Shown piece after piece: positions 12,499-36,578 of a stretch of DNA of 64,000 nucleotides. A program made the translations under genes and the position numbers. A model generated the notes under the pieces. It made no database searches and was not told the origin of the DNA. It worked only from the letters and a program-made list of their open reading frames with translations. The stretch's first letter is position 1; each line of letters starts with the position of its first letter. Where the stretch lies: NCBI RefSeq assembly GCF_041886205.1, contig NZ_CP169029.1; one strand, given 5' to 3'. The stretch comes from Escherichia coli. Lineage in GTDB: Bacteria > Pseudomonadota > Gammaproteobacteria > Enterobacterales > Enterobacteriaceae.

Positions 12499-12832
12499 TT
12501 ACCTTAACCTACTCATACGAAGCGGACGAGGATAAAATCCTATCATTTTCCGTTCGCTTCATTATTTTATTTTCTTTCCAATGCCCATTCAAATTAAAAA
12601 TATAACTCTGCCATAACTTCCTGAACACAGATGTAATTACATTGCCACCTCTCATACTTTTAAAAACGATCCATATGACAAGTCGTCCTATTGGGGCGTG
12701 ATAGATGTATTAATTTCCAAATATGCAAACATTCTGATACAGTCCCAAAAAGAAAATAATTACCAACCCAGATAATCAGCAAATAAATTAATGACAGTTG
12801 AATTATAATCAACACGAATACAAGAGATTAAC

Positions 12833-14683
12833 ATGGCAACAATAATCCCAACAATCAGTAGCTGCAACGATAAAATTACTGCCGGAGAGAAAAGGCTGGC
12901 AAGAATTCTGGAAAGAGGACTAGGCGAAGAGTGCTGCTGTTGGTATGACATTCCCACGGGTGATAAGCATCTTCACCCAGATTTTATGATACTTTCGCCA
13001 GAAAAAGGCATTATTTTTCTCGAGGTAAAAGATTGGTTTATTACAAAAATAAAAAAAGCCAACAAGTCTAATGTGTGGTATGAGACACAAAATGGCATTC
13101 AATCTTTAAAGAATCCGATAGAACAAGTTAGGCGATATGCTTTCGAAGCTGTAAACCAGTTAAAAAAAGACCCCCTATTGCGCCAACAGGATGATCGTTA
13201 CAATGGCAATCTTCTTTTCCCCTATGGATATGGCGTCTACTTTAGTAATATTACACGAGAAGCATTAAATAATAAATTTACTCAAGAAGAGCTGCTCGGG
13301 ATCTTCCCATCAGATCTCATCATCTGCAAAGACGAACTAAATGAATTCATGTCAAAAGAGGATGTTTCATCTAAAATACATTCGTTAATTAAATATGACT
13401 TCAAATGTCATGCTACACAAGAACAGTTGAACAGGATTAGATGGCACTTATACCCCGATGTCAGAATAGAAAGGGAAAAGAGAAGTAAAAACCGTGATGA
13501 ATTGAGTGTCGATGCACCAACCATCATTTCTATCCTGGATACTCAACAGGAACAACTTGCCAGGAGTATGAGAGATGGCCACCGAATCATTCATGGTGTT
13601 GCAGGTTCAGGGAAGACATTGATCCTCTATCATCGCTGTCAGGAATTAGCGAAAAAAAATGACAGCGAAAAGCCAATACTTGTCATTTGCTACAATATTA
13701 CTTTAGCCAAAAAACTTCGGTCGATGTTCATCAATCATCCCTTTGCAGAGAAAATAAAGGTTAAAAATTTTCATGCATGGTGTTTCCAACAAATTAAAGA
13801 AAACAAGATCACCATTCCAGAAGGGGATAATATTTTTGAAAATATGGAGCAAGCGTTGACTGATGGTTTCAACACAGGAAAAATAAAACCAGAACAATAC
13901 AGCGCTGTATTAATTGATGAAGGACATGATTTTAAGCCCGAATGGTTAAAAATCCTTGCAAAAATGACTGACTCTCAGGACGAGAATTTGCTATTCCTTT
14001 ATGATGATGCTCAGTCAATTTACCAAAAAAAGAAAGCATTAGACTTTACACTGTCCAGCGTAGATATTAAAGCGACAGGGCGCACAACTATTCTTAATAT
14101 AAATTATAGAAACACACAGCAAATCCTACACTTTGCCAGTTGCATTGCATTTAATTATCTTAATAGCCATATCGATAGTTCTTTAACCTATCATAAACCT
14201 GCTGCGGGAGGAATGAATGGCGATTATCCCAACCTTGAACATTTCGACACACAGGACGAAGAAATAGCAAGAGCAGTCAAATGGATTACAGAGCAAAATG
14301 AACAAGGGATTCCGTGGTCTGAAATTGCTATACTAAGTCCATCAACTCATACCCTTTCTAACTCTCTAAGTTCTGTACTTGAATCGAAAAACATCCCCTT
14401 TAATCTTATTGTAAGCTCTGCAGATAAAAAATCCTGGACGCCAGAACAAGAGCGTGTTTCTGTGATGCCATTACCCAGCAGCAAAGGGCTTGAGTTTCAC
14501 TCAGTTGTCATTATTGACGCAGCGAGAACACGGGATAATAGCGATGATTTGAGTGAGGATATAAAGAGACTCTATGTAGGTTTTACCCGAGCACGTTGCA
14601 ATCTCTTGGTAACCTTGCACGGTGAAGGTGCGTTAAATGAGCATCTACTAAAAACCTATGAGCAAAGCCCACAATATATGTAA
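12833..14683 (+). CDS. NERD-domain nuclease fused to SF1 (UvrD-like) helicase; Nhi-like candidate anti-phage protein
   Basis: 616 aa; N-terminal NERD-like region with PD...(E)VK core (HPDFMIL ... IIFLEVKDW); Walker A GVAGSGKT, Walker B VLIDEGHDF, SF1 motif V/VI-like LPSSKGLEFHSVVII and LYVGFTRARCNLLV; AT-rich; occupies the slot that holds mrr-hsdRMS in K-12. Confidence 0.75.
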   Translation: MATIIPTISSCNDKITAGEKRLARILERGLGEECCCWYDIPTGDKHLHPDFMILSPEKGIIFLEVKDWFITKIKKANKSNVWYETQNGIQSLKNPIEQVRRYAFEAVNQLKKDPLLRQQDDRYNGNLLFPYGYGVYFSNITREALNNKFTQEELLGIFPSDLIICKDELNEFMSKEDVSSKIHSLIKYDFKCHATQEQLNRIRWHLYPDVRIEREKRSKNRDELSVDAPTIISILDTQQEQLARSMRDGHRIIHGVAGSGKTLILYHRCQELAKKNDSEKPILVICYNITLAKKLRSMFINHPFAEKIKVKNFHAWCFQQIKENKITIPEGDNIFENMEQALTDGFNTGKIKPEQYSAVLIDEGHDFKPEWLKILAKMTDSQDENLLFLYDDAQSIYQKKKALDFTLSSVDIKATGRTTILNINYRNTQQILHFASCIAFNYLNSHIDSSLTYHKPAAGGMNGDYPNLEHFDTQDEEIARAVKWITEQNEQGIPWSEIAILSPSTHTLSNSLSSVLESKNIPFNLIVSSADKKSWTPEQERVSVMPLPSSKGLEFHSVVIIDAARTRDNSDDLSEDIKRLYVGFTRARCNLLVTLHGEGALNEHLLKTYEQSPQYM

Positions 14684-14827
14684 AAATGATAAATGATCTC
14701 CATAACGCCCGGTAACGCGGTACCGGGCGAAATGAATGCATATCTAAGATATTAGTCACGCCTGATAGCCGCTACCAAAAACACCATCATCTCCCTCGCA
14801 TCTTTGCGGTGATAAAATCGTACCATT

Positions 14828-15121
14828 TTGCTGTTAAATTCCAGCGCGTTAGCCGCTGGAATTAACAAGATCAGACTTCCGGCAACGAAGAGCCAGTTAT
14901 TACAAAAATTACTGGCAAAAGAGATAAAAAGCATTGTTGACAACACATCGAAATATCCTGACTGGAGTAAACACGATGATATTAAAGCGAAACTGAAAGT
15001 TGAACTTATTCTGCTTCTACACAAGCATAAGTTCCCGTCAGTAGCGAATGATGATGTTTATATGGGTGTGCTGGCACAGGCAGAGAGTTTTAAAGAACAT
15101 CATATGAGTCCTATAAATTAA
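14828..15121 (+). pseudogene. Orphan ORF fragment without ATG start, possible relic of a displaced restriction cassette
   Basis: 97-codon frame beginning at TTG with no convincing RBS; reads like the C-terminal tail of a larger protein; located between the NERD-helicase gene and symE. Confidence 0.3.
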
Positions 15122-15299
15122 TCATGAAGGCTGGATACACTTTGTTATCCGGCCATTGTGAATTAACGTTAATTTTTCTTCCAAATCTTTCCAGTAACGC
15201 TTTTATTATTTTCTATTTTTAGCTGGACTTTCCCTGTATTTACTGATGATATGTCCAGGTATTTAGCGCGGTGCGGATGTGCGCCAACACACCCGCACC

Positions 15300-15376
15300 A
15301 CTCATCACAATCACTATTTTCAAGGAATAGCAGTTATGACTGACACGCATTTTATTGCACAACCGTTCGAAGCAGA
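15300..15376 (-). ncRNA. symR: Expected position of SymR antisense sRNA (type I antitoxin) overlapping the symE RBS and start
   Basis: Placement inferred from the known symE/symR arrangement; boundaries not determinable from sequence alone. Confidence 0.35.
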
Positions 15377-15677
15377 AGTCTCCCCGGCAAATAACCGTCA
15401 ATTAACCGTGAGTTATGCGAGCCGCTACCCGGATTACAGCCGTATTCCCGCCATCACCCTGAAAGGTCAGTGGCTGGAAGCCGCCGGTTTTGCCACCGGC
15501 ACGGCGGTAGATGTCAAAGTAATGGAAGGCTGTATTGTCCTCACCGCCCAACAACCCGCCGCCGAAGAGAGCGAACTGATGCAGTCGCTGCGCCAGGTGT
15601 GCAAACTGTCGGCGCGTAAACAAAAGCAGGTGCAGGATTTTATTGGGGTGATTGCCGGTAAACAGAAAGTCGCCTGA
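15336..15677 (+). CDS. symE: SOS-induced toxin SymE (AbrB/MazE-like fold endoribonuclease)
   Basis: 113 aa from ATG 15336 with AAGGAA SD; sequence [25 protein letters not shown] ... matches remembered SymE (YjiW). Confidence 0.8.
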
Positions 15678-15684
15678 TAAATTG

Positions 15685-15716
15685 ACCCGGTAGCGCCAGT
15701 GCTACCGGGTATTATT
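15685..15716. terminator. Bidirectional hairpin between convergent symE and GmrSD-like gene
   Basis: acccggtagc / gccagt / gctaccgggt followed by attatt; lies between stop codons 15677 and 15724. Confidence 0.6.
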
Positions 15717-15723
15717 CGCCACG

Positions 15724-17817
15724 TTATACCAACGCGCTCTCCATCTGTTTTTCAAATGCCTGACGAATTAATCCCATAATGTAAGGAAGTTGTGCGAGGT
15801 CGCTGAAACCAATTTCCACATCACCATTACCCCAGCGCCCAATATTTGTCACATCTTTGGCAATACCTTTCGGATCGACCAGTTCATGAAACTGCATATT
15901 AAGCGACAATCGCAGTCGGCTTTTTTGCGGCACAACATCAACAAAATTCGTTTCAGCTTTAAACGCAATATACAGCTTTAAAACTTCCTGCGTGATCCCT
16001 GCGTCCAGGCGCATAACTTCATCGCGAAGATGATCGAATAACACCCGGCTATGCGAACCATCAGCAAGAAAAGGATAATCACTCAGGCTGTAACTGGTTT
16101 TGTTTTCTGGCTGCCCCCGATAAACAGCTAAAACCTCTTCAGAAAGAGAAGGCGCTTGCCAGACCTGAACCGCGAGATCGGCCAGACGATCGGCTCGGGC
16201 GTGAATGGCGGCTTCATCCCATTTTTCGCACTGTCCAAGACCGATATTCAAATAAAGCGGGCTATGTTTAAAGCCATCTTCAATATCGCGTTTTTCCGCG
16301 AAAGGTCTGTCACTGTAGCGGGAGTTATAGCGCGTTAAAGTGAGATTCCCCAACGTATGTAACAGTTCTTTATGCACACGCTGCCAGTCGCTTCCCAGCT
16401 CTTCACGCCATTTAGCCGACAGATTTTCGTTCTGCGGCATAATGTGCTCAATCGTAAACTCTTCCACGCGCTCTCTGCGTTTATCGTTTTCCAGTCGTCG
16501 TAACCAGTAGCTGCGGCTGCGGAAGTTATAGAGATCGCGCACTTTTAATTCCCGTTTAAATTCATCATCGTTGGGGAAACGACGATATGAAGGCAGGTTC
16601 ATAAAATGTACCTGAATACTTTCCAGATATTTTTCTTTATTAATGACCTTATAAAAAGTGGCAAACGTCTTGTTAAGAGAATTCGTCGGAATCGCACATA
16701 CTGCACGGCGGAAAACATAAGATTCAATTAAACGAATTATGCTCAGGAAATCTTCGTGAGACAAATCGTCATTTTTATAGTCATGATAAAGCGCCAGTAA
16801 GAAAGGATACGCCACATCAACCTTTAACTCGCGCAAATCCTGAAAAGCCGTAGCAAGCGATTTGTCACTTTCTTTTCCCAATGCCATTGCACAGTAATAC
16901 TCCGCGTAGATATGAATATCTTCAACCAGCCGATCTACGCCTTTTTCAGCAACACTCTGGCTGCGGGCATGGAGTTTAAATGCCTCATAGACTTCATCTG
17001 TCCGAGGGATCTCCCCCGTTTTTACCGTCAGATAATGACGCATAAAACTGTCAAAATATTCGCTGTAACCTTGCTGACCAAAGGCGACTTCCATTGGACG
17101 CCAGTGATCTTCATACAACCGGGTTTGATGCTCTGGTTCGAGACCCATCAGAATAAAATTGCGCACCAGATCGGCCTGACTTAACGCCTTACCGGTGGAG
17201 TTCATACTTTCAAAAATCAGTTGCGGATTATCCTGACCACGATTAAGCGCCACATCGACAATTAATAACTTTGCTAACCCTCGACATAAGGGAATCAAGT
17301 CATCCCCGAGTTTGGCAATTTGCTCATCAAAGAAAGTAAAGTTTTCCATTATTCGATGGGAATAGTTTTCTGGCATTGGTCTTTGTTTTATTAACGCCAG
17401 CAAACTGTCTTTATCAGTCTCGGTCAGCAGTAATTTAAAACCTTTCTCGCCGGACTCATAAGGATTGAGCAAATAATAATTACGCAATTTCATTGCCGAA
17501 AAGCCATCAAAAACTTCGTCTTCGCCAAGATGGCGCGATAAAGCCTCAATCAGCAACATTGCGGTCGTCAGCCGCTGCTGACCATCAATGACCAGCAACG
17601 GAGAAATACCAGAAACCTGATACAACCCCTGCTCAATATAAACAACCGAACCGATAAAATGCGCTGATATATCGTCACGCTTTCCGGCACGAATGATGTC
17701 GTCCCAAAGTTGCCGACATTGTTGCCCGGTCCATGAATAGGTGCGTTGATAAATGGGAATAACAAACTGCTGCGAACGTTTTAAAAAATCGAGTAGGCGG
17801 GCTTCTGTAGCTTTCAT
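15724..17817 (-). CDS. Type IV modification-dependent restriction endonuclease, GmrSD family (DUF262 + DUF1524)
   Basis: 697 aa; N-terminal DUF262/ParB-like NTPase motifs (IPIYQRTYSW, IDGQQRLTT); C-terminal DUF1524 His-Me finger motifs (EHIMPQ, HTLGNLTLT); sits where mcrBC lies in K-12. Confidence 0.75.
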   Translation of the reverse strand: MKATEARLLDFLKRSQQFVIPIYQRTYSWTGQQCRQLWDDIIRAGKRDDISAHFIGSVVYIEQGLYQVSGISPLLVIDGQQRLTTAMLLIEALSRHLGEDEVFDGFSAMKLRNYYLLNPYESGEKGFKLLLTETDKDSLLALIKQRPMPENYSHRIMENFTFFDEQIAKLGDDLIPLCRGLAKLLIVDVALNRGQDNPQLIFESMNSTGKALSQADLVRNFILMGLEPEHQTRLYEDHWRPMEVAFGQQGYSEYFDSFMRHYLTVKTGEIPRTDEVYEAFKLHARSQSVAEKGVDRLVEDIHIYAEYYCAMALGKESDKSLATAFQDLRELKVDVAYPFLLALYHDYKNDDLSHEDFLSIIRLIESYVFRRAVCAIPTNSLNKTFATFYKVINKEKYLESIQVHFMNLPSYRRFPNDDEFKRELKVRDLYNFRSRSYWLRRLENDKRRERVEEFTIEHIMPQNENLSAKWREELGSDWQRVHKELLHTLGNLTLTRYNSRYSDRPFAEKRDIEDGFKHSPLYLNIGLGQCEKWDEAAIHARADRLADLAVQVWQAPSLSEEVLAVYRGQPENKTSYSLSDYPFLADGSHSRVLFDHLRDEVMRLDAGITQEVLKLYIAFKAETNFVDVVPQKSRLRLSLNMQFHELVDPKGIAKDVTNIGRWGNGDVEIGFSDLAQLPYIMGLIRQAFEKQMESALV

Positions 17818-34300: not shown

Positions 34301-36578
34301 CTCCATGACCGGGAACTTCACGCTAAGTAGTGAAACCGCCCGCACCGATGCAAACGGCGATGCCATGGTCACATTGCGAGGCACAAAAGCGGGTGAGTTT
34401 ACAGTTACGGCGACGCTGACAAGAAATAATACCATTGCTCATCAGCAAGTTTCTTTTATTGGGGATACAAACAGTGCGCAGCTCCAGCCGCTGACTGCCT
34501 CATTAAATACCATTGTTGCGGGTAACAGTACGGGGAGTACCCTGACGGCAACGATCCTGGACGCTTACCAAAATCCGCTTAAAGACCAGCTGGTCACTTT
34601 CCAGAGTAACGATGTCACTCTAAGCGGAACAGAAGTCACCACCAATACGCTGGGTCAGGCGACGGTAACAATGACCAGCAATATTGCCGGACAACATAAC
34701 GTCGTGGTGAGCCGGAAAGCACAAGCCTCCGATAATAAAACGTTTAGTTTATCAGTGCTCCCGGATGAAAGTTCGGCGAAGGTAATAAGTATAACCGGAG
34801 CCGAAAAAACGATAACGGTTGGCGAAAACATCACGCTACGGATACTCGTCCAGGACGCGTTTAACAATGTAATAGCGGGTCAACGTGTCAGATTAAGTGC
34901 GCAGCCAACAGCTCACATTACGATAGGCGATACGGCTTACACCGATAATAACGGTTATGCGTACGTTCACCTTATTAGCACCCAGTCTGGGGTTTATCAG
35001 GTGACGGCAACGCTGGACAATAACAGTAGTAGTAAGGTTGACGTGAATGTGGCAAATGGCAAACTCGAGTTAACATCATCGAAGCCAGAAACCACGGTCC
35101 ATAACAGTGAGGGTATTACGCTTACCGCAACGGCGAGAAATGCGCGGGATGAATTGATGCCTGGGCAAATTATCACCTTTAGCGTAACGCCTGAAGGTGC
35201 AACGCTAAGCAATACAGGGGAAGTCCTTACTGACCAGTCTGGTCAGGCCAAAGTGACGCTGACCAGTGACAAAGTGAATGTCTATACCGTTACGGCCACA
35301 ATGGGCAAAGATGTTCCCGTTCAGAGCCAGGTAACGGTTGCGGTTAAGGCAGATGCTAAAACGGCACATGTTGTAAGCGTCGTGGCCTCTCCTGACACCA
35401 TAACCGCCGACGGCGTTGATAGCAGCACCGTCACGTCACGAGTAGAAGATGATTACGGATTCCCGGTTGAAGGTGTCGATGTTAGTTATGCCTTAGACAC
35501 CAAAGGTCGCCCGGTTGTTAATATTCCAACTACGCGTACCGATCAATCCGGGCAAGTCACGGCGACAATAACCAGTACATTGGCAGAAACCTTAACAGTC
35601 AATGTGCAAGTTCCTGGTACAGCCAACCAATCCGCAGCTATTACCTTGATTGCCGGCACGGCGGATGAAAGTAAGTCAATTTTGAAATCCGACGTTGGCA
35701 CTCTGATGGCTGACTACCAGCATAGCGCGAAACTTACGCTAACATTGCAAGACAAGTACGGTAACCCGATAGTGACGTCTGATCATCTGGAATTTGTCCA
35801 GTCAGGTCCCTTCGTGAACTTTCTCAAGTTGAGCGATATTGATTACAGCCAAAGAAATTATGGCGAGTACACCGTGACTGTCACTGGCGGAAAAGAGGGA
35901 ACAGCGACTCTCATTCCCATGCTGAACGGGGTTCATCAGGCAAACTTAAGCGTATCGCTGAATCTCATCCGCTCGATAAAAGAAATGTCCGGTCATGTCA
36001 CTGCAAACAACCATACCTTCTCCACGGCTAAATTCCCGAGCGAAGGTTTTGCAGGAGCGTATTACACACTCAACAATGATAACTTTGAAGCGGGTAAAAC
36101 CGTTGATGATTATATGTTTTCAAGTTCACAGAGTTGGGTGTCTGTCGATGCGTCAGGTAAGGTTTCTTTCACAAATATCGGCGATCAAACGTCAGTCACA
36201 ATAAGCGCTGTTCCCCGACAAGGAGGTACAACCTACCAGACCTTAATTAAGCTGAAAGGCTGGTGGGTGAATAATGGAAATCAAACCAATATCTGGCTAA
36301 CTGCCAATGCGCTCTGTCATGCGAAAAATGATGGATATACTCTTCCTGGCATCACACATTTGACGTCTGGCGAAAACAAACGCACGCAGGGATCGCTATA
36401 TGGTGAATGGGGGAACGTTGCAGCGTTTTCCAGTAATTCGCCATTTACACCAGGTGCTTACTGGACAAATGAATCTGATGATTACAATAGGCACTACTAT
36501 GTGCAGATGCTAACGGGTATGACCGGAAGCGACGCTGATTCCAGCCCCCAACTGACCGCCTGCCGTAAATCACTTTAA
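31338..36578 (+). CDS. Inverse autotransporter adhesin (intimin/invasin family) with LysM, beta-barrel and many Big domains
   Basis: 1746 aa; SD GGAAGG; extended N-terminal signal region; LysM-like segment (SVADRFGVSLEELRRLNQF); intimin/invasin-type beta-barrel (GLGWRHFTPSWMSGINLFFDHDLSRYHSRAGLGAEYW); at least 12 Ig-like repeats (e.g. TLTATVTDFHNNPLKDMKVNF); divergent C-terminal domain with Cys residues. Confidence 0.8.
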   Translation: MASTNAHQIKNNDQNSLCGLGDKIRRLTAGVCLFTQIFFPVMATAQNVVHAKSQTTVSSAPPLIENNTVPYTLGALESAQSVADRFGVSLEELRRLNQFRTFARGFDNVRQGEELDVPATTSQKSHEQQNAVPPANGENTLENQIASTSQRVGTLLSQDMNSEQASGMARGWASSEASGAMTDWLNNFGTARISLGVDEDFSLKNSQFDFLHPWYDTPDYLLFSQHTLHRTDDRTQINTGLGWRHFTPSWMSGINLFFDHDLSRYHSRAGLGAEYWRDYLKLSSNAYIGLTGWRSAPELDNDFEARPANGWDLRAEGWLPAWPQLGGKLVYEQYYGDEVALFDKNDRQSNPHAITAGLNYTPFPLLTLSAEQRQGKQGENDTRFAVDLTWQPSSSMQKQLNPDEVAGRRSLVGSRYDLIDRNNNIVLEYRKKELIRLSLLDPVKGKSGEIKPLVSSLQTKYALKGYNIEAAALEAAGGKVSTSGKDITVTLPGYRFTNTPETDNTWSIDVTAEDVKGNLSHHEQSMVVIQAPTLSQKDSLLSVNPLTVAADKKSTTTLTVTAHDSDGTPVPGLALQTRSEGVQDITLSDWTDNGDGSYTQMLTAGTTSGSVTLTPQINGESAVKESIVVNIVPVVSSRDHSSITIDNVSYYAGDDIKVRVELKDDSNQPVAYQKEELVKAVTVENSKPGATIVWHEELPGVYTANYPAHKQGTALRAQLSLHNWNAPLQSHIYNIEANQNKARVATLSATNNDVYADKKTFNTLTINVTDESDNPLTNHQVTFKNEKGSAEFVEPPQQNTDAYGVATINMVSQVAEENTISATLPNGFSQRIIAKFVSDSSTPKFKQLVADPDTIIAGNSQGSTLTATVTDFHNNPLKDMKVNFVAPGGSQLDNTTATTDQYGIVRVHLTSSKAGSYSVDASLEADKNIHQSVTITVVPNREQSVMTLNAGSGSAVANNTNTVTLTASVKDVYGHPLPDEDVKFTLPASMTGNFTLSSETARTDANGDAMVTLRGTKAGEFTVTATLTRNNTIAHQQVSFIGDTNSAQLQPLTASLNTIVAGNSTGSTLTATILDAYQNPLKDQLVTFQSNDVTLSGTEVTTNTLGQATVTMTSNIAGQHNVVVSRKAQASDNKTFSLSVLPDESSAKVISITGAEKTITVGENITLRILVQDAFNNVIAGQRVRLSAQPTAHITIGDTAYTDNNGYAYVHLISTQSGVYQVTATLDNNSSSKVDVNVANGKLELTSSKPETTVHNSEGITLTATARNARDELMPGQIITFSVTPEGATLSNTGEVLTDQSGQAKVTLTSDKVNVYTVTATMGKDVPVQSQVTVAVKADAKTAHVVSVVASPDTITADGVDSSTVTSRVEDDYGFPVEGVDVSYALDTKGRPVVNIPTTRTDQSGQVTATITSTLAETLTVNVQVPGTANQSAAITLIAGTADESKSILKSDVGTLMADYQHSAKLTLTLQDKYGNPIVTSDHLEFVQSGPFVNFLKLSDIDYSQRNYGEYTVTVTGGKEGTATLIPMLNGVHQANLSVSLNLIRSIKEMSGHVTANNHTFSTAKFPSEGFAGAYYTLNNDNFEAGKTVDDYMFSSSQSWVSVDASGKVSFTNIGDQTSVTISAVPRQGGTTYQTLIKLKGWWVNNGNQTNIWLTANALCHAKNDGYTLPGITHLTSGENKRTQGSLYGEWGNVAAFSSNSPFTPGAYWTNESDDYNRHYYVQMLTGMTGSDADSSPQLTACRKSL

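Follow-up and report, generated by a model that had tools for sequence, protein, structure and literature searches.

Gene content of the locus

The window analysed here (the whole stretch of 64,000 nt of Escherichia coli DNA) carries the symE gene, its antisense RNA SymR and a LexA operator between two cassettes that differ from those of strain K-12. The following features were localized in this region (positions are those of the window):

12833–14683, plus strand: gene of a 616-aa NERD and UvrD-like helicase protein, a candidate defence gene (Pfam NERD, UvrD-helicase, UvrD_C)
14911–15121, plus strand: 3′ stump (last 211 bp) of a type I hsdR gene, left behind when the upstream cassette was replaced
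15205–15677, plus strand: conserved symE-symR module, the sole K-12-homologous stretch between the two exchanged cassettes
15224–15252, plus strand: putative symE promoter, proposed by eye
15224–15229, plus strand: putative −35 hexamer TGGACT, followed by a 17-bp spacer
15241–15260: LexA (SOS) box, 20-mer TACTGATGATATGTCCAGGT, orthologous to the published K-12 yjiW box
15247–15252, plus strand: putative TG-extended −10 hexamer TGATAT, overlapped by the LexA box
15265–15341, minus strand: SymR, 77 nt (Rfam RF01809), spanning the symE start codon, Shine-Dalgarno sequence and 5′ leader
15322–15326, plus strand: symE Shine-Dalgarno sequence AAGGA, 9 nt before the ATG and inside the SymR-complementary stretch
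15336–15677, plus strand: symE coding sequence, 113 codons plus stop (ATG at 15336, stop codon at 15675–15677)
15349–15354, minus strand: predicted SymR promoter −10 hexamer TAAAAT (TAGAAT in K-12), inside symE codons 5–7
15685–15710: GC-rich hairpin of 10 bp that lies between symE and the convergent GmrSD gene and belongs to the downstream cassette
15724–17817, minus strand: intact gene of a 697-aa GmrSD-family type IV restriction enzyme (Pfam GmrSD_N, GmrSD_C, DUF5655)

The original prediction described symE as intact and preceded by a good Shine-Dalgarno sequence, and this was borne out. The 113-codon frame is complete, and the encoded protein scored well above the cut-offs of both the Pfam SymE_toxin profile (PF08845; 76.8 bits, cut-off 29) and the NCBIfam equivalog model PRK13605 (227 bits, cut-off 132, residues 1–112 of 113 covered), which places it in the AbrB/MazE-like SymE_toxin family. 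It is 95% identical to K-12 SymE, from which it differs by six substitutions (K-12 to window: S6F, H22Q, V23L, G26S, P73Q and A101D); four of these six window residues also occur in other sampled alleles. According to the summary of Thompson (2022) in PMC11894785, SymE is no longer regarded as an endoribonuclease but as a non-specific DNA-binding, nucleoid-condensing protein, and the current annotation of SymE in MG1655 matches the revised function.

The Rfam search recognized SymR over its full length (1–77; 88.4 bits against a gathering threshold of 61, E = 4e-17). The RNA is predicted to form two hairpins (−37.4 kcal/mol, z = −5.5), with the same architecture as in K-12 (−37.8 kcal/mol; z about −5.4), and is encoded in cis, antisense to the Shine-Dalgarno sequence and start codon of symE. 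By both the Rfam match and the fold, the antisense partner on which the original prediction depended appears to be present.

The predicted SymR promoter is embedded in the symE reading frame. In K-12, the −10 hexamer of symR has been knocked down experimentally by a CATTCT to CACTCC exchange within symE (PMC1891008). The alignment revealed that the window reads CATTTT at this position, and its −10 hexamer is therefore TAAAAT and not TAGAAT; judged as a hexamer, TAAAAT would be equally good, and the rest of the SymR upstream stretch is identical in the window and K-12. A single C>T change within 15348–15354 alters both this hexamer and the SymE protein, where Ser6 becomes Phe; in the sample of 21 loci it was found solely in the window and in strain 6EVA.

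A blastn comparison with K-12 matched window positions 15205–15673 (93.8% identity); outside this stretch, homology to K-12 is limited to one side, from yjiA onwards. In the alignment of 21 loci, the flanks diverge fully upstream of approx. 15214 and just after the symE stop codon (in some loci just before it). Relative to K-12, both neighbouring cassettes were thus exchanged, as had been proposed: the NERD+UvrD gene and the hsdR stump stand in place of hsdRMS-mrr, and the GmrSD gene in place of mcrBC. With 99.4% identity over 24.6 kb, the window is closely related to E. coli 6EVA but is not that strain. The 601-bp stretch 15100–15700, which runs from the hsdR stump across symE into the downstream spacer, has a match of at least 99% in 7 of 5426 genomes.

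The NERD+UvrD gene (PADLOC C3a187 'NERD+UvrD', 467 bits) occupies the place of hsdM, hsdS and most of hsdR. In 6EVA it is annotated as a '3′-5′ exonuclease' pseudogene with an internal stop; in the window the frame is open. Homology of the hsdR stump to strain NCTC9040, where an intact hsdR ends at this site, begins at window position 14911, and the stump matches Pfam T1RH-like_C at profile positions 266–328 of 329 only. On the other side, the RefSeq annotation of relatives gives a 387-aa 'DUF1524/GmrSD' protein and a 'DUF262 pseudogene' for the GmrSD gene; such a split was rejected for the window, which has one continuous 697-aa frame. This frame is 100% identical in 6EVA (12625–14718 of the fetched locus, L001) and continuous in MCJCHV-1 (6489–8690 of L008), and the split annotation in the relatives looks like an artefact; the GmrSD gene of NCTC9040 is genuinely frameshifted. 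The hairpin at 15685–15710 (−20.2 kcal/mol, z = −2.7) is also present in CFT073-type loci and absent from K-12; it lacks a T-run and was therefore missed by the terminator scan.

Around the module we identified at least three downstream flank types and three upstream flank families, while the module itself is approx. 94–96% identical among the intact sampled loci. The symER block begins approx. 30 bp upstream of the LexA box, and therefore the promoter, operator, SymR and ORF move together. Of 5426 complete E. coli genomes, 2872 (53%) contain a match to symE. A link between SymE genes and restriction-modification islands was pointed out as early as 2007; yjiA and yjiN have been named as the boundary genes of the locus, and symE-symR as one toxin-antitoxin system accompanying type I families there (PMC12707154). 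The proposal that symE is a framework gene of the locus therefore stands as regards a conserved block retained between swapped cassettes. It does not extend to an E. coli-wide anchor, and the term is too strong in view of the 53% presence, the disruptions by insertion sequences described below and the naming of yjiA and yjiN as boundaries.

Variation of the module was also observed within symE. In E. coli LST200A (NZ_CP110858.1), IS1A is inserted after approx. codon 11 (965–1680 of the fetched locus), with the promoter, LexA box and SymR region retained. In strains EcPF18, N47, LCP30S3_I3 and muskdeer13-4, a recombination breakpoint lies approx. 30 bp before the symE stop codon, which indicates that the downstream cassette junction is not always at this codon; these strains encode a 112-aa variant with an altered C-terminus, and yjiS directly follows the 3′-end of symE, without GmrSD or McrBC.

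Position of the LexA box

The core of the predicted box, the 16-mer CTGATGATATGTCCAG at 15243–15258, has the form CTG-N10-CAG, with 8 A/T pairs among the 10 positions of the spacer (CTG ATGATATGTC CAG). Alignment with MG1655 revealed that it corresponds column for column to the K-12 yjiW/symE box CTGATGATATATACAG, which Fernandez De Henestrosa (2000; quoted in PMC2585105) listed as a LexA site of yjiW. The LexA-like element of the original prediction is thereby placed at the position of a validated K-12 operator, and its overlap with the −10 hexamer would follow from the putative promoter given above. It is very likely that this 20-mer represents the operator orthologous to that of K-12, in an allele common in nature.

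Scoring of the window with a matrix derived from 21 published LexA boxes ranked the 20-mer at 15241–15260 second among the LexA-like sites of all 64 kb. The best one, TATTGGGGATACAAACAGTG (34457–34476, index 12.34), lacks the CTG and is located inside a 1746-aa ORF (31338–36578), and so is probably due to chance. Closer to symE, a TG/CA polymorphism at 15234–15239 (CCCTGTATT in the window, CCCCATATT in K-12 and O157) creates a perfect CTGTAT half-site 9 bp upstream of the LexA box; no partner for this half-site was found (20-mer index 22.8). In E. coli MSB1_1A (NZ_LR890288.1) the box itself is interrupted by ISKox3 (ISL3 family; approx. 590–620 of the fetched locus, L006): the left half-site and the whole promoter are gone, ...GACCCTGATATATACAGG remains, and symE and SymR are intact downstream of the element.

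Two rival readings were weighed. One holds that the motif is a chance CTG-N10-CAG and that the real LexA box, if any, lies elsewhere upstream. Bare cores are indeed frequent in the window (22, compared with 12.7 ± 3.2 in shuffled sequences), and such a core has no significance by itself, but the base-for-base orthology with the published K-12 box means that the motif call is not misplaced and already refutes this reading. Moreover, neither a better nor a second LexA box was found on either strand of 15000–15750, where the next-best 20-mer has an index of 20.4 compared with 13.3. A degenerate DNA pattern scan of species-representative genomes returned six loci, five of which cover the upstream region. 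Four of these have the CTG-N10-CAG box at −95 from the ATG, and the remaining one (Pseudocitrobacter) has it at −99. We give the chance origin of the motif practically no credence. The other reading regards the window symE as a non-functional, decaying remnant of cassette replacement, and it could draw on the reduction of the upstream hsd operon to a 211-bp stump and on the insertion sequences that disrupt symE in LST200A (L013) and, by way of its operator, in MSB1_1A. Against it stand the full-length frame with its 227-bit equivalog match, the intact state of SymR, the SymR −10 hexamer and the Shine-Dalgarno sequence, and the small number of residues that distinguish the protein from its K-12 counterpart (six, most of which recur in other alleles as noted above), so that decay seems extremely improbable.

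The putative promoter block is conserved in all intact loci of the 21-locus alignment. The hexamers are tentative, since a pattern scan detected neither a consensus sigma-70 promoter nor an intrinsic terminator near symE. The hairpins that follow the NERD-helicase gene and the hsdR stump are without T-runs, and read-through into symE from the upstream genes may occur; in strain CFT073, deletion of hsd altered the expression of yjiW (PMC8287963).

In K-12, LexA, SymR and Lon repress symE additively (PMC1891008). By homology, LexA bound to the promoter-overlapping box would keep symE transcription low in the window strain, and DNA damage would remove it from the operator. Abundant, constitutively produced SymR would pair with the leader, Shine-Dalgarno sequence and start codon and block translation, and the SymE that is nevertheless made would be degraded by Lon.

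Operator alleles and their predicted strength

Two substitutions separate the window box from that of K-12, A>G at 15253 and A>C at 15255; only the first of them separates it from the commonest E. coli allele. The distribution of these alleles was determined by exact matching of flanked sequence in 5426 complete E. coli genomes (the window allele as a 59-mer, the other two as 60-mers); approx. 1000 further symE-matching genomes, which differ elsewhere in the 60-mer, lie outside these counts:

...ATATCCAG: at least 1029 genomes, the commonest E. coli state
...ATATACAG (K-12 type): 435 genomes, many of the listed examples being lab strains
...ATGTCCAG (window): at least 248 genomes

The K-12 box is therefore a minority allele and not typical for E. 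coli. The original prediction counted two deviations from the consensus in the window, and both are present in the sequence. They are not marks of the strain: CTGA is shared by the K-12 box and every intact E. coli locus fetched, and CCAG is the ending of the commonest allele. Of the 21 published LexA boxes, 9 have a C before CAG, and the published ybfE box CTGATTAAAAACCCAG carries both CTGA and CCAG. To speak of only a degenerate box was thus an overstatement.

The change that sets the window apart is A>G at position 13 of the box (15253), where 17 of the 21 reference boxes have A and none has G; the palindromic mirror of this G, a C at position 8, occurs once among them, in sulA. All symE alleles have a poor left half-site, CTGATG. 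On the right, the half-site read on the opposite strand is perfect in K-12 (CTGTAT), and becomes CTGGAT in the common allele and CTGGAC in the window. Both half-sites therefore deviate in the window. By affecting the better half-site at an A-preferring position, A>G would weaken the operator to near the level of polB, ybfE and yoaA.

A heterology index was rebuilt from the 21 published K-12 boxes with symE left out (18 boxes of 20 nt, two of 18 nt taken from PMC3009722 and one of 16 nt); with 21 sites, the penalty for a base absent from them depends largely on the pseudocount. The following values were obtained:

K-12 symE box: symmetrised index 9.30, unsymmetrised 10.36
common E. coli symE allele: symmetrised index 10.12, unsymmetrised 10.55
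window symE box: symmetrised index 13.31, unsymmetrised 14.11
polB, the highest full-length reference box: symmetrised index 12.19, unsymmetrised value not directly comparable

Fernandez De Henestrosa (2000) reportedly gave the yjiW box an index of 9.27. The window box, at 13.31, falls outside the range of the 18 full-length reference boxes (1.8–12.2), a result that is borderline and matrix-dependent. Since its index is slightly beyond that of polB, the weakest reference box, LexA is predicted to bind this operator with weak or borderline affinity, the lowest predicted for the three symE operator alleles compared. A published table assigns K-12 symE an index of 7.9 and has LexA-dependent genes reaching 13 (polB and yoaA); in that study K-12 symE is LexA-dependent yet not AZT-induced (PMC11228462). 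If our shift of +4.0 is put onto the published 7.9, the window box would extrapolate to approx. 12.

The G allele was found in nine of the fetched loci (window included), and eleven further loci of the E. coli collection carry other alleles. It is accompanied by an hsdR-type upstream flank in the window, 6EVA and muskdeer13-4, by a type IB EcoAI-family hsdS flank in MCJCHV-1, ChlosBP-23-1, FDAARGOS_1252 and LCP30S3_I3, and by a K-12-like (type IA-like) hsdS flank in TUM9803 and E143. Two downstream contexts (GmrSD or yjiS) occur with it in the 21-locus alignment, as do at least four SymR loop sequences and several SymE variants. The G allele is a standing polymorphism and not a product of decay in the window strain; its association with varied flanks, SymR loops and SymE variants points either to recombination inside the promoter block, which is short and conserved, or to recurrent mutation, and speaks against a single recent clone with one haplotype.

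No deviation from CTG or CAG was seen in the 19 E. coli-collection loci whose box is intact, nor in the five species-scan loci that cover it. The Pseudocitrobacter box retains both, although its spacer (CTGGTTAGATTTACAG) is largely different, which argues that the symE LexA box is under selection. Kluyvera ascorbata (CTGATGATATGTACAG) has the same G as the window. The evidence for conservation across genera comes from few sequences, since six loci were returned and the symE gene of Salmonella, aligned in Kawano 2007, was not recovered by the degenerate-pattern scan of species-representative genomes. The symE upstream flank of Pseudocitrobacter faecalis (L021) is nearly identical to the type IB hsdS-type flank of E. 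coli, which suggests that the hsd-symE block was recently exchanged horizontally. Two metagenome-assembled genomes labelled 'Bacillota' (one of them L024) also carry E. coli-like symE loci, probably as a result of binning contamination.

How far the G affects regulation can be read in several ways. In one of them, A>G drops the operator below useful LexA affinity, leaving symE independent of the SOS response and checked by SymR and Lon only. The index, higher than that of all 18 full-length reference boxes, and the lack of G at position 13 in any of the 21 boxes would agree with this, and loss of LexA control would be tolerable, since the K-12 repressors are additive and SymE is only slightly raised in a lexA51 mutant (PMC1891008). 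However, the allele keeps CTG-N10-CAG and the A/T-rich spacer, it persists in at least 248 genomes of several backgrounds with CTG and CAG undecayed, Kluyvera combines the same G with an intact CTG and CAG, and LexA-regulated genes have indices of up to 13 in the published table, compared with approx. 12 extrapolated for the window. We regard complete loss of LexA control as unlikely. A different idea, for which we see still less likelihood, is that the ACAG, CCAG and GTCCAG alleles form a maintained polymorphism with differing SOS thresholds for SymE, shuffled by recombination with the approx. 470-bp symER block as a homology arm, the G allele giving early or constitutive low-level SymE.

The reading that we prefer, and hold to be quite probable as a whole, is that of an ordinary symE-symR type I toxin-antitoxin module of the E. 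coli immigration control region, with its LexA operator in the normal place and in a natural allele that is predicted to be weaker, with control kept. It seems rather likely that this allele retains LexA dependence. Weaker SOS boxes lead to earlier or leakier derepression (PMC9578287), and the same is predicted for the window operator; the anatomy, orthology, allele counts and shift in index were observed, and from these LexA binding, the promoter hexamers and the size of any change in symE expression are inferred. The suggestion that SOS control may be altered in this strain consequently loses its strain-specific part, given the at least 248 genomes with the allele, and keeps a possible, predicted weakening through A>G.

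Relation to known systems

The gene pair, its antisense control, the LexA box and the cassette variation of the surrounding defence island have all been published. The window module is the same gene pair as that described in K-12 by Kawano, Aravind & Storz (2007), with a 77-nt SymR antisense to the leader and start codon, a SymR promoter inside the ORF and a LexA box 95 nt before the ATG, and in both strains symE immediately follows a type I hsd gene or what is left of one; the sequence of SymR loop 1 and both flanking cassettes differ. The locus likewise corresponds to the immigration control region, situated between yjiA and yjiS/yjiN with swapped defence cassettes, in which the replacement of McrBC by GmrSD is a described variant (PMC12707154). 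The version found in the window is without a working type I system and has the NERD+UvrD candidate defence gene instead.

Among functional SOS boxes, those of ybfE, polB and yoaA share with the window box a position at the weak end of the index. Unlike it, none of them has G at position 13, and their LexA dependence has been measured (that of ybfE is disputed; PMC11228462). The tisB/istR-1 and dinQ/agrB pairs resemble symE/symR in combining a LexA-repressed toxin with a constitutive base-pairing RNA that blocks translation (PMC4147584). In contrast to the 113-aa AbrB/MazE-fold protein SymE, the TisB and DinQ toxins are small membrane peptides, and their boxes are strong (tisB index 1.8).

With an operator variant present in at least 248 strains and one base removed from the commonest allele, the observation is real but ordinary: a known system with a minor natural variation of its operator, which adds little beyond annotation. 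What is added here is that the K-12 box is atypical, that at least three operator alleles circulate in E. coli and that the window's is the predicted weakest. This is a small point on natural variation of SOS operators and not a new system; if the weakening is true, natural strains would differ in how they tie the toxic, nucleoid-condensing SymE protein to DNA damage.
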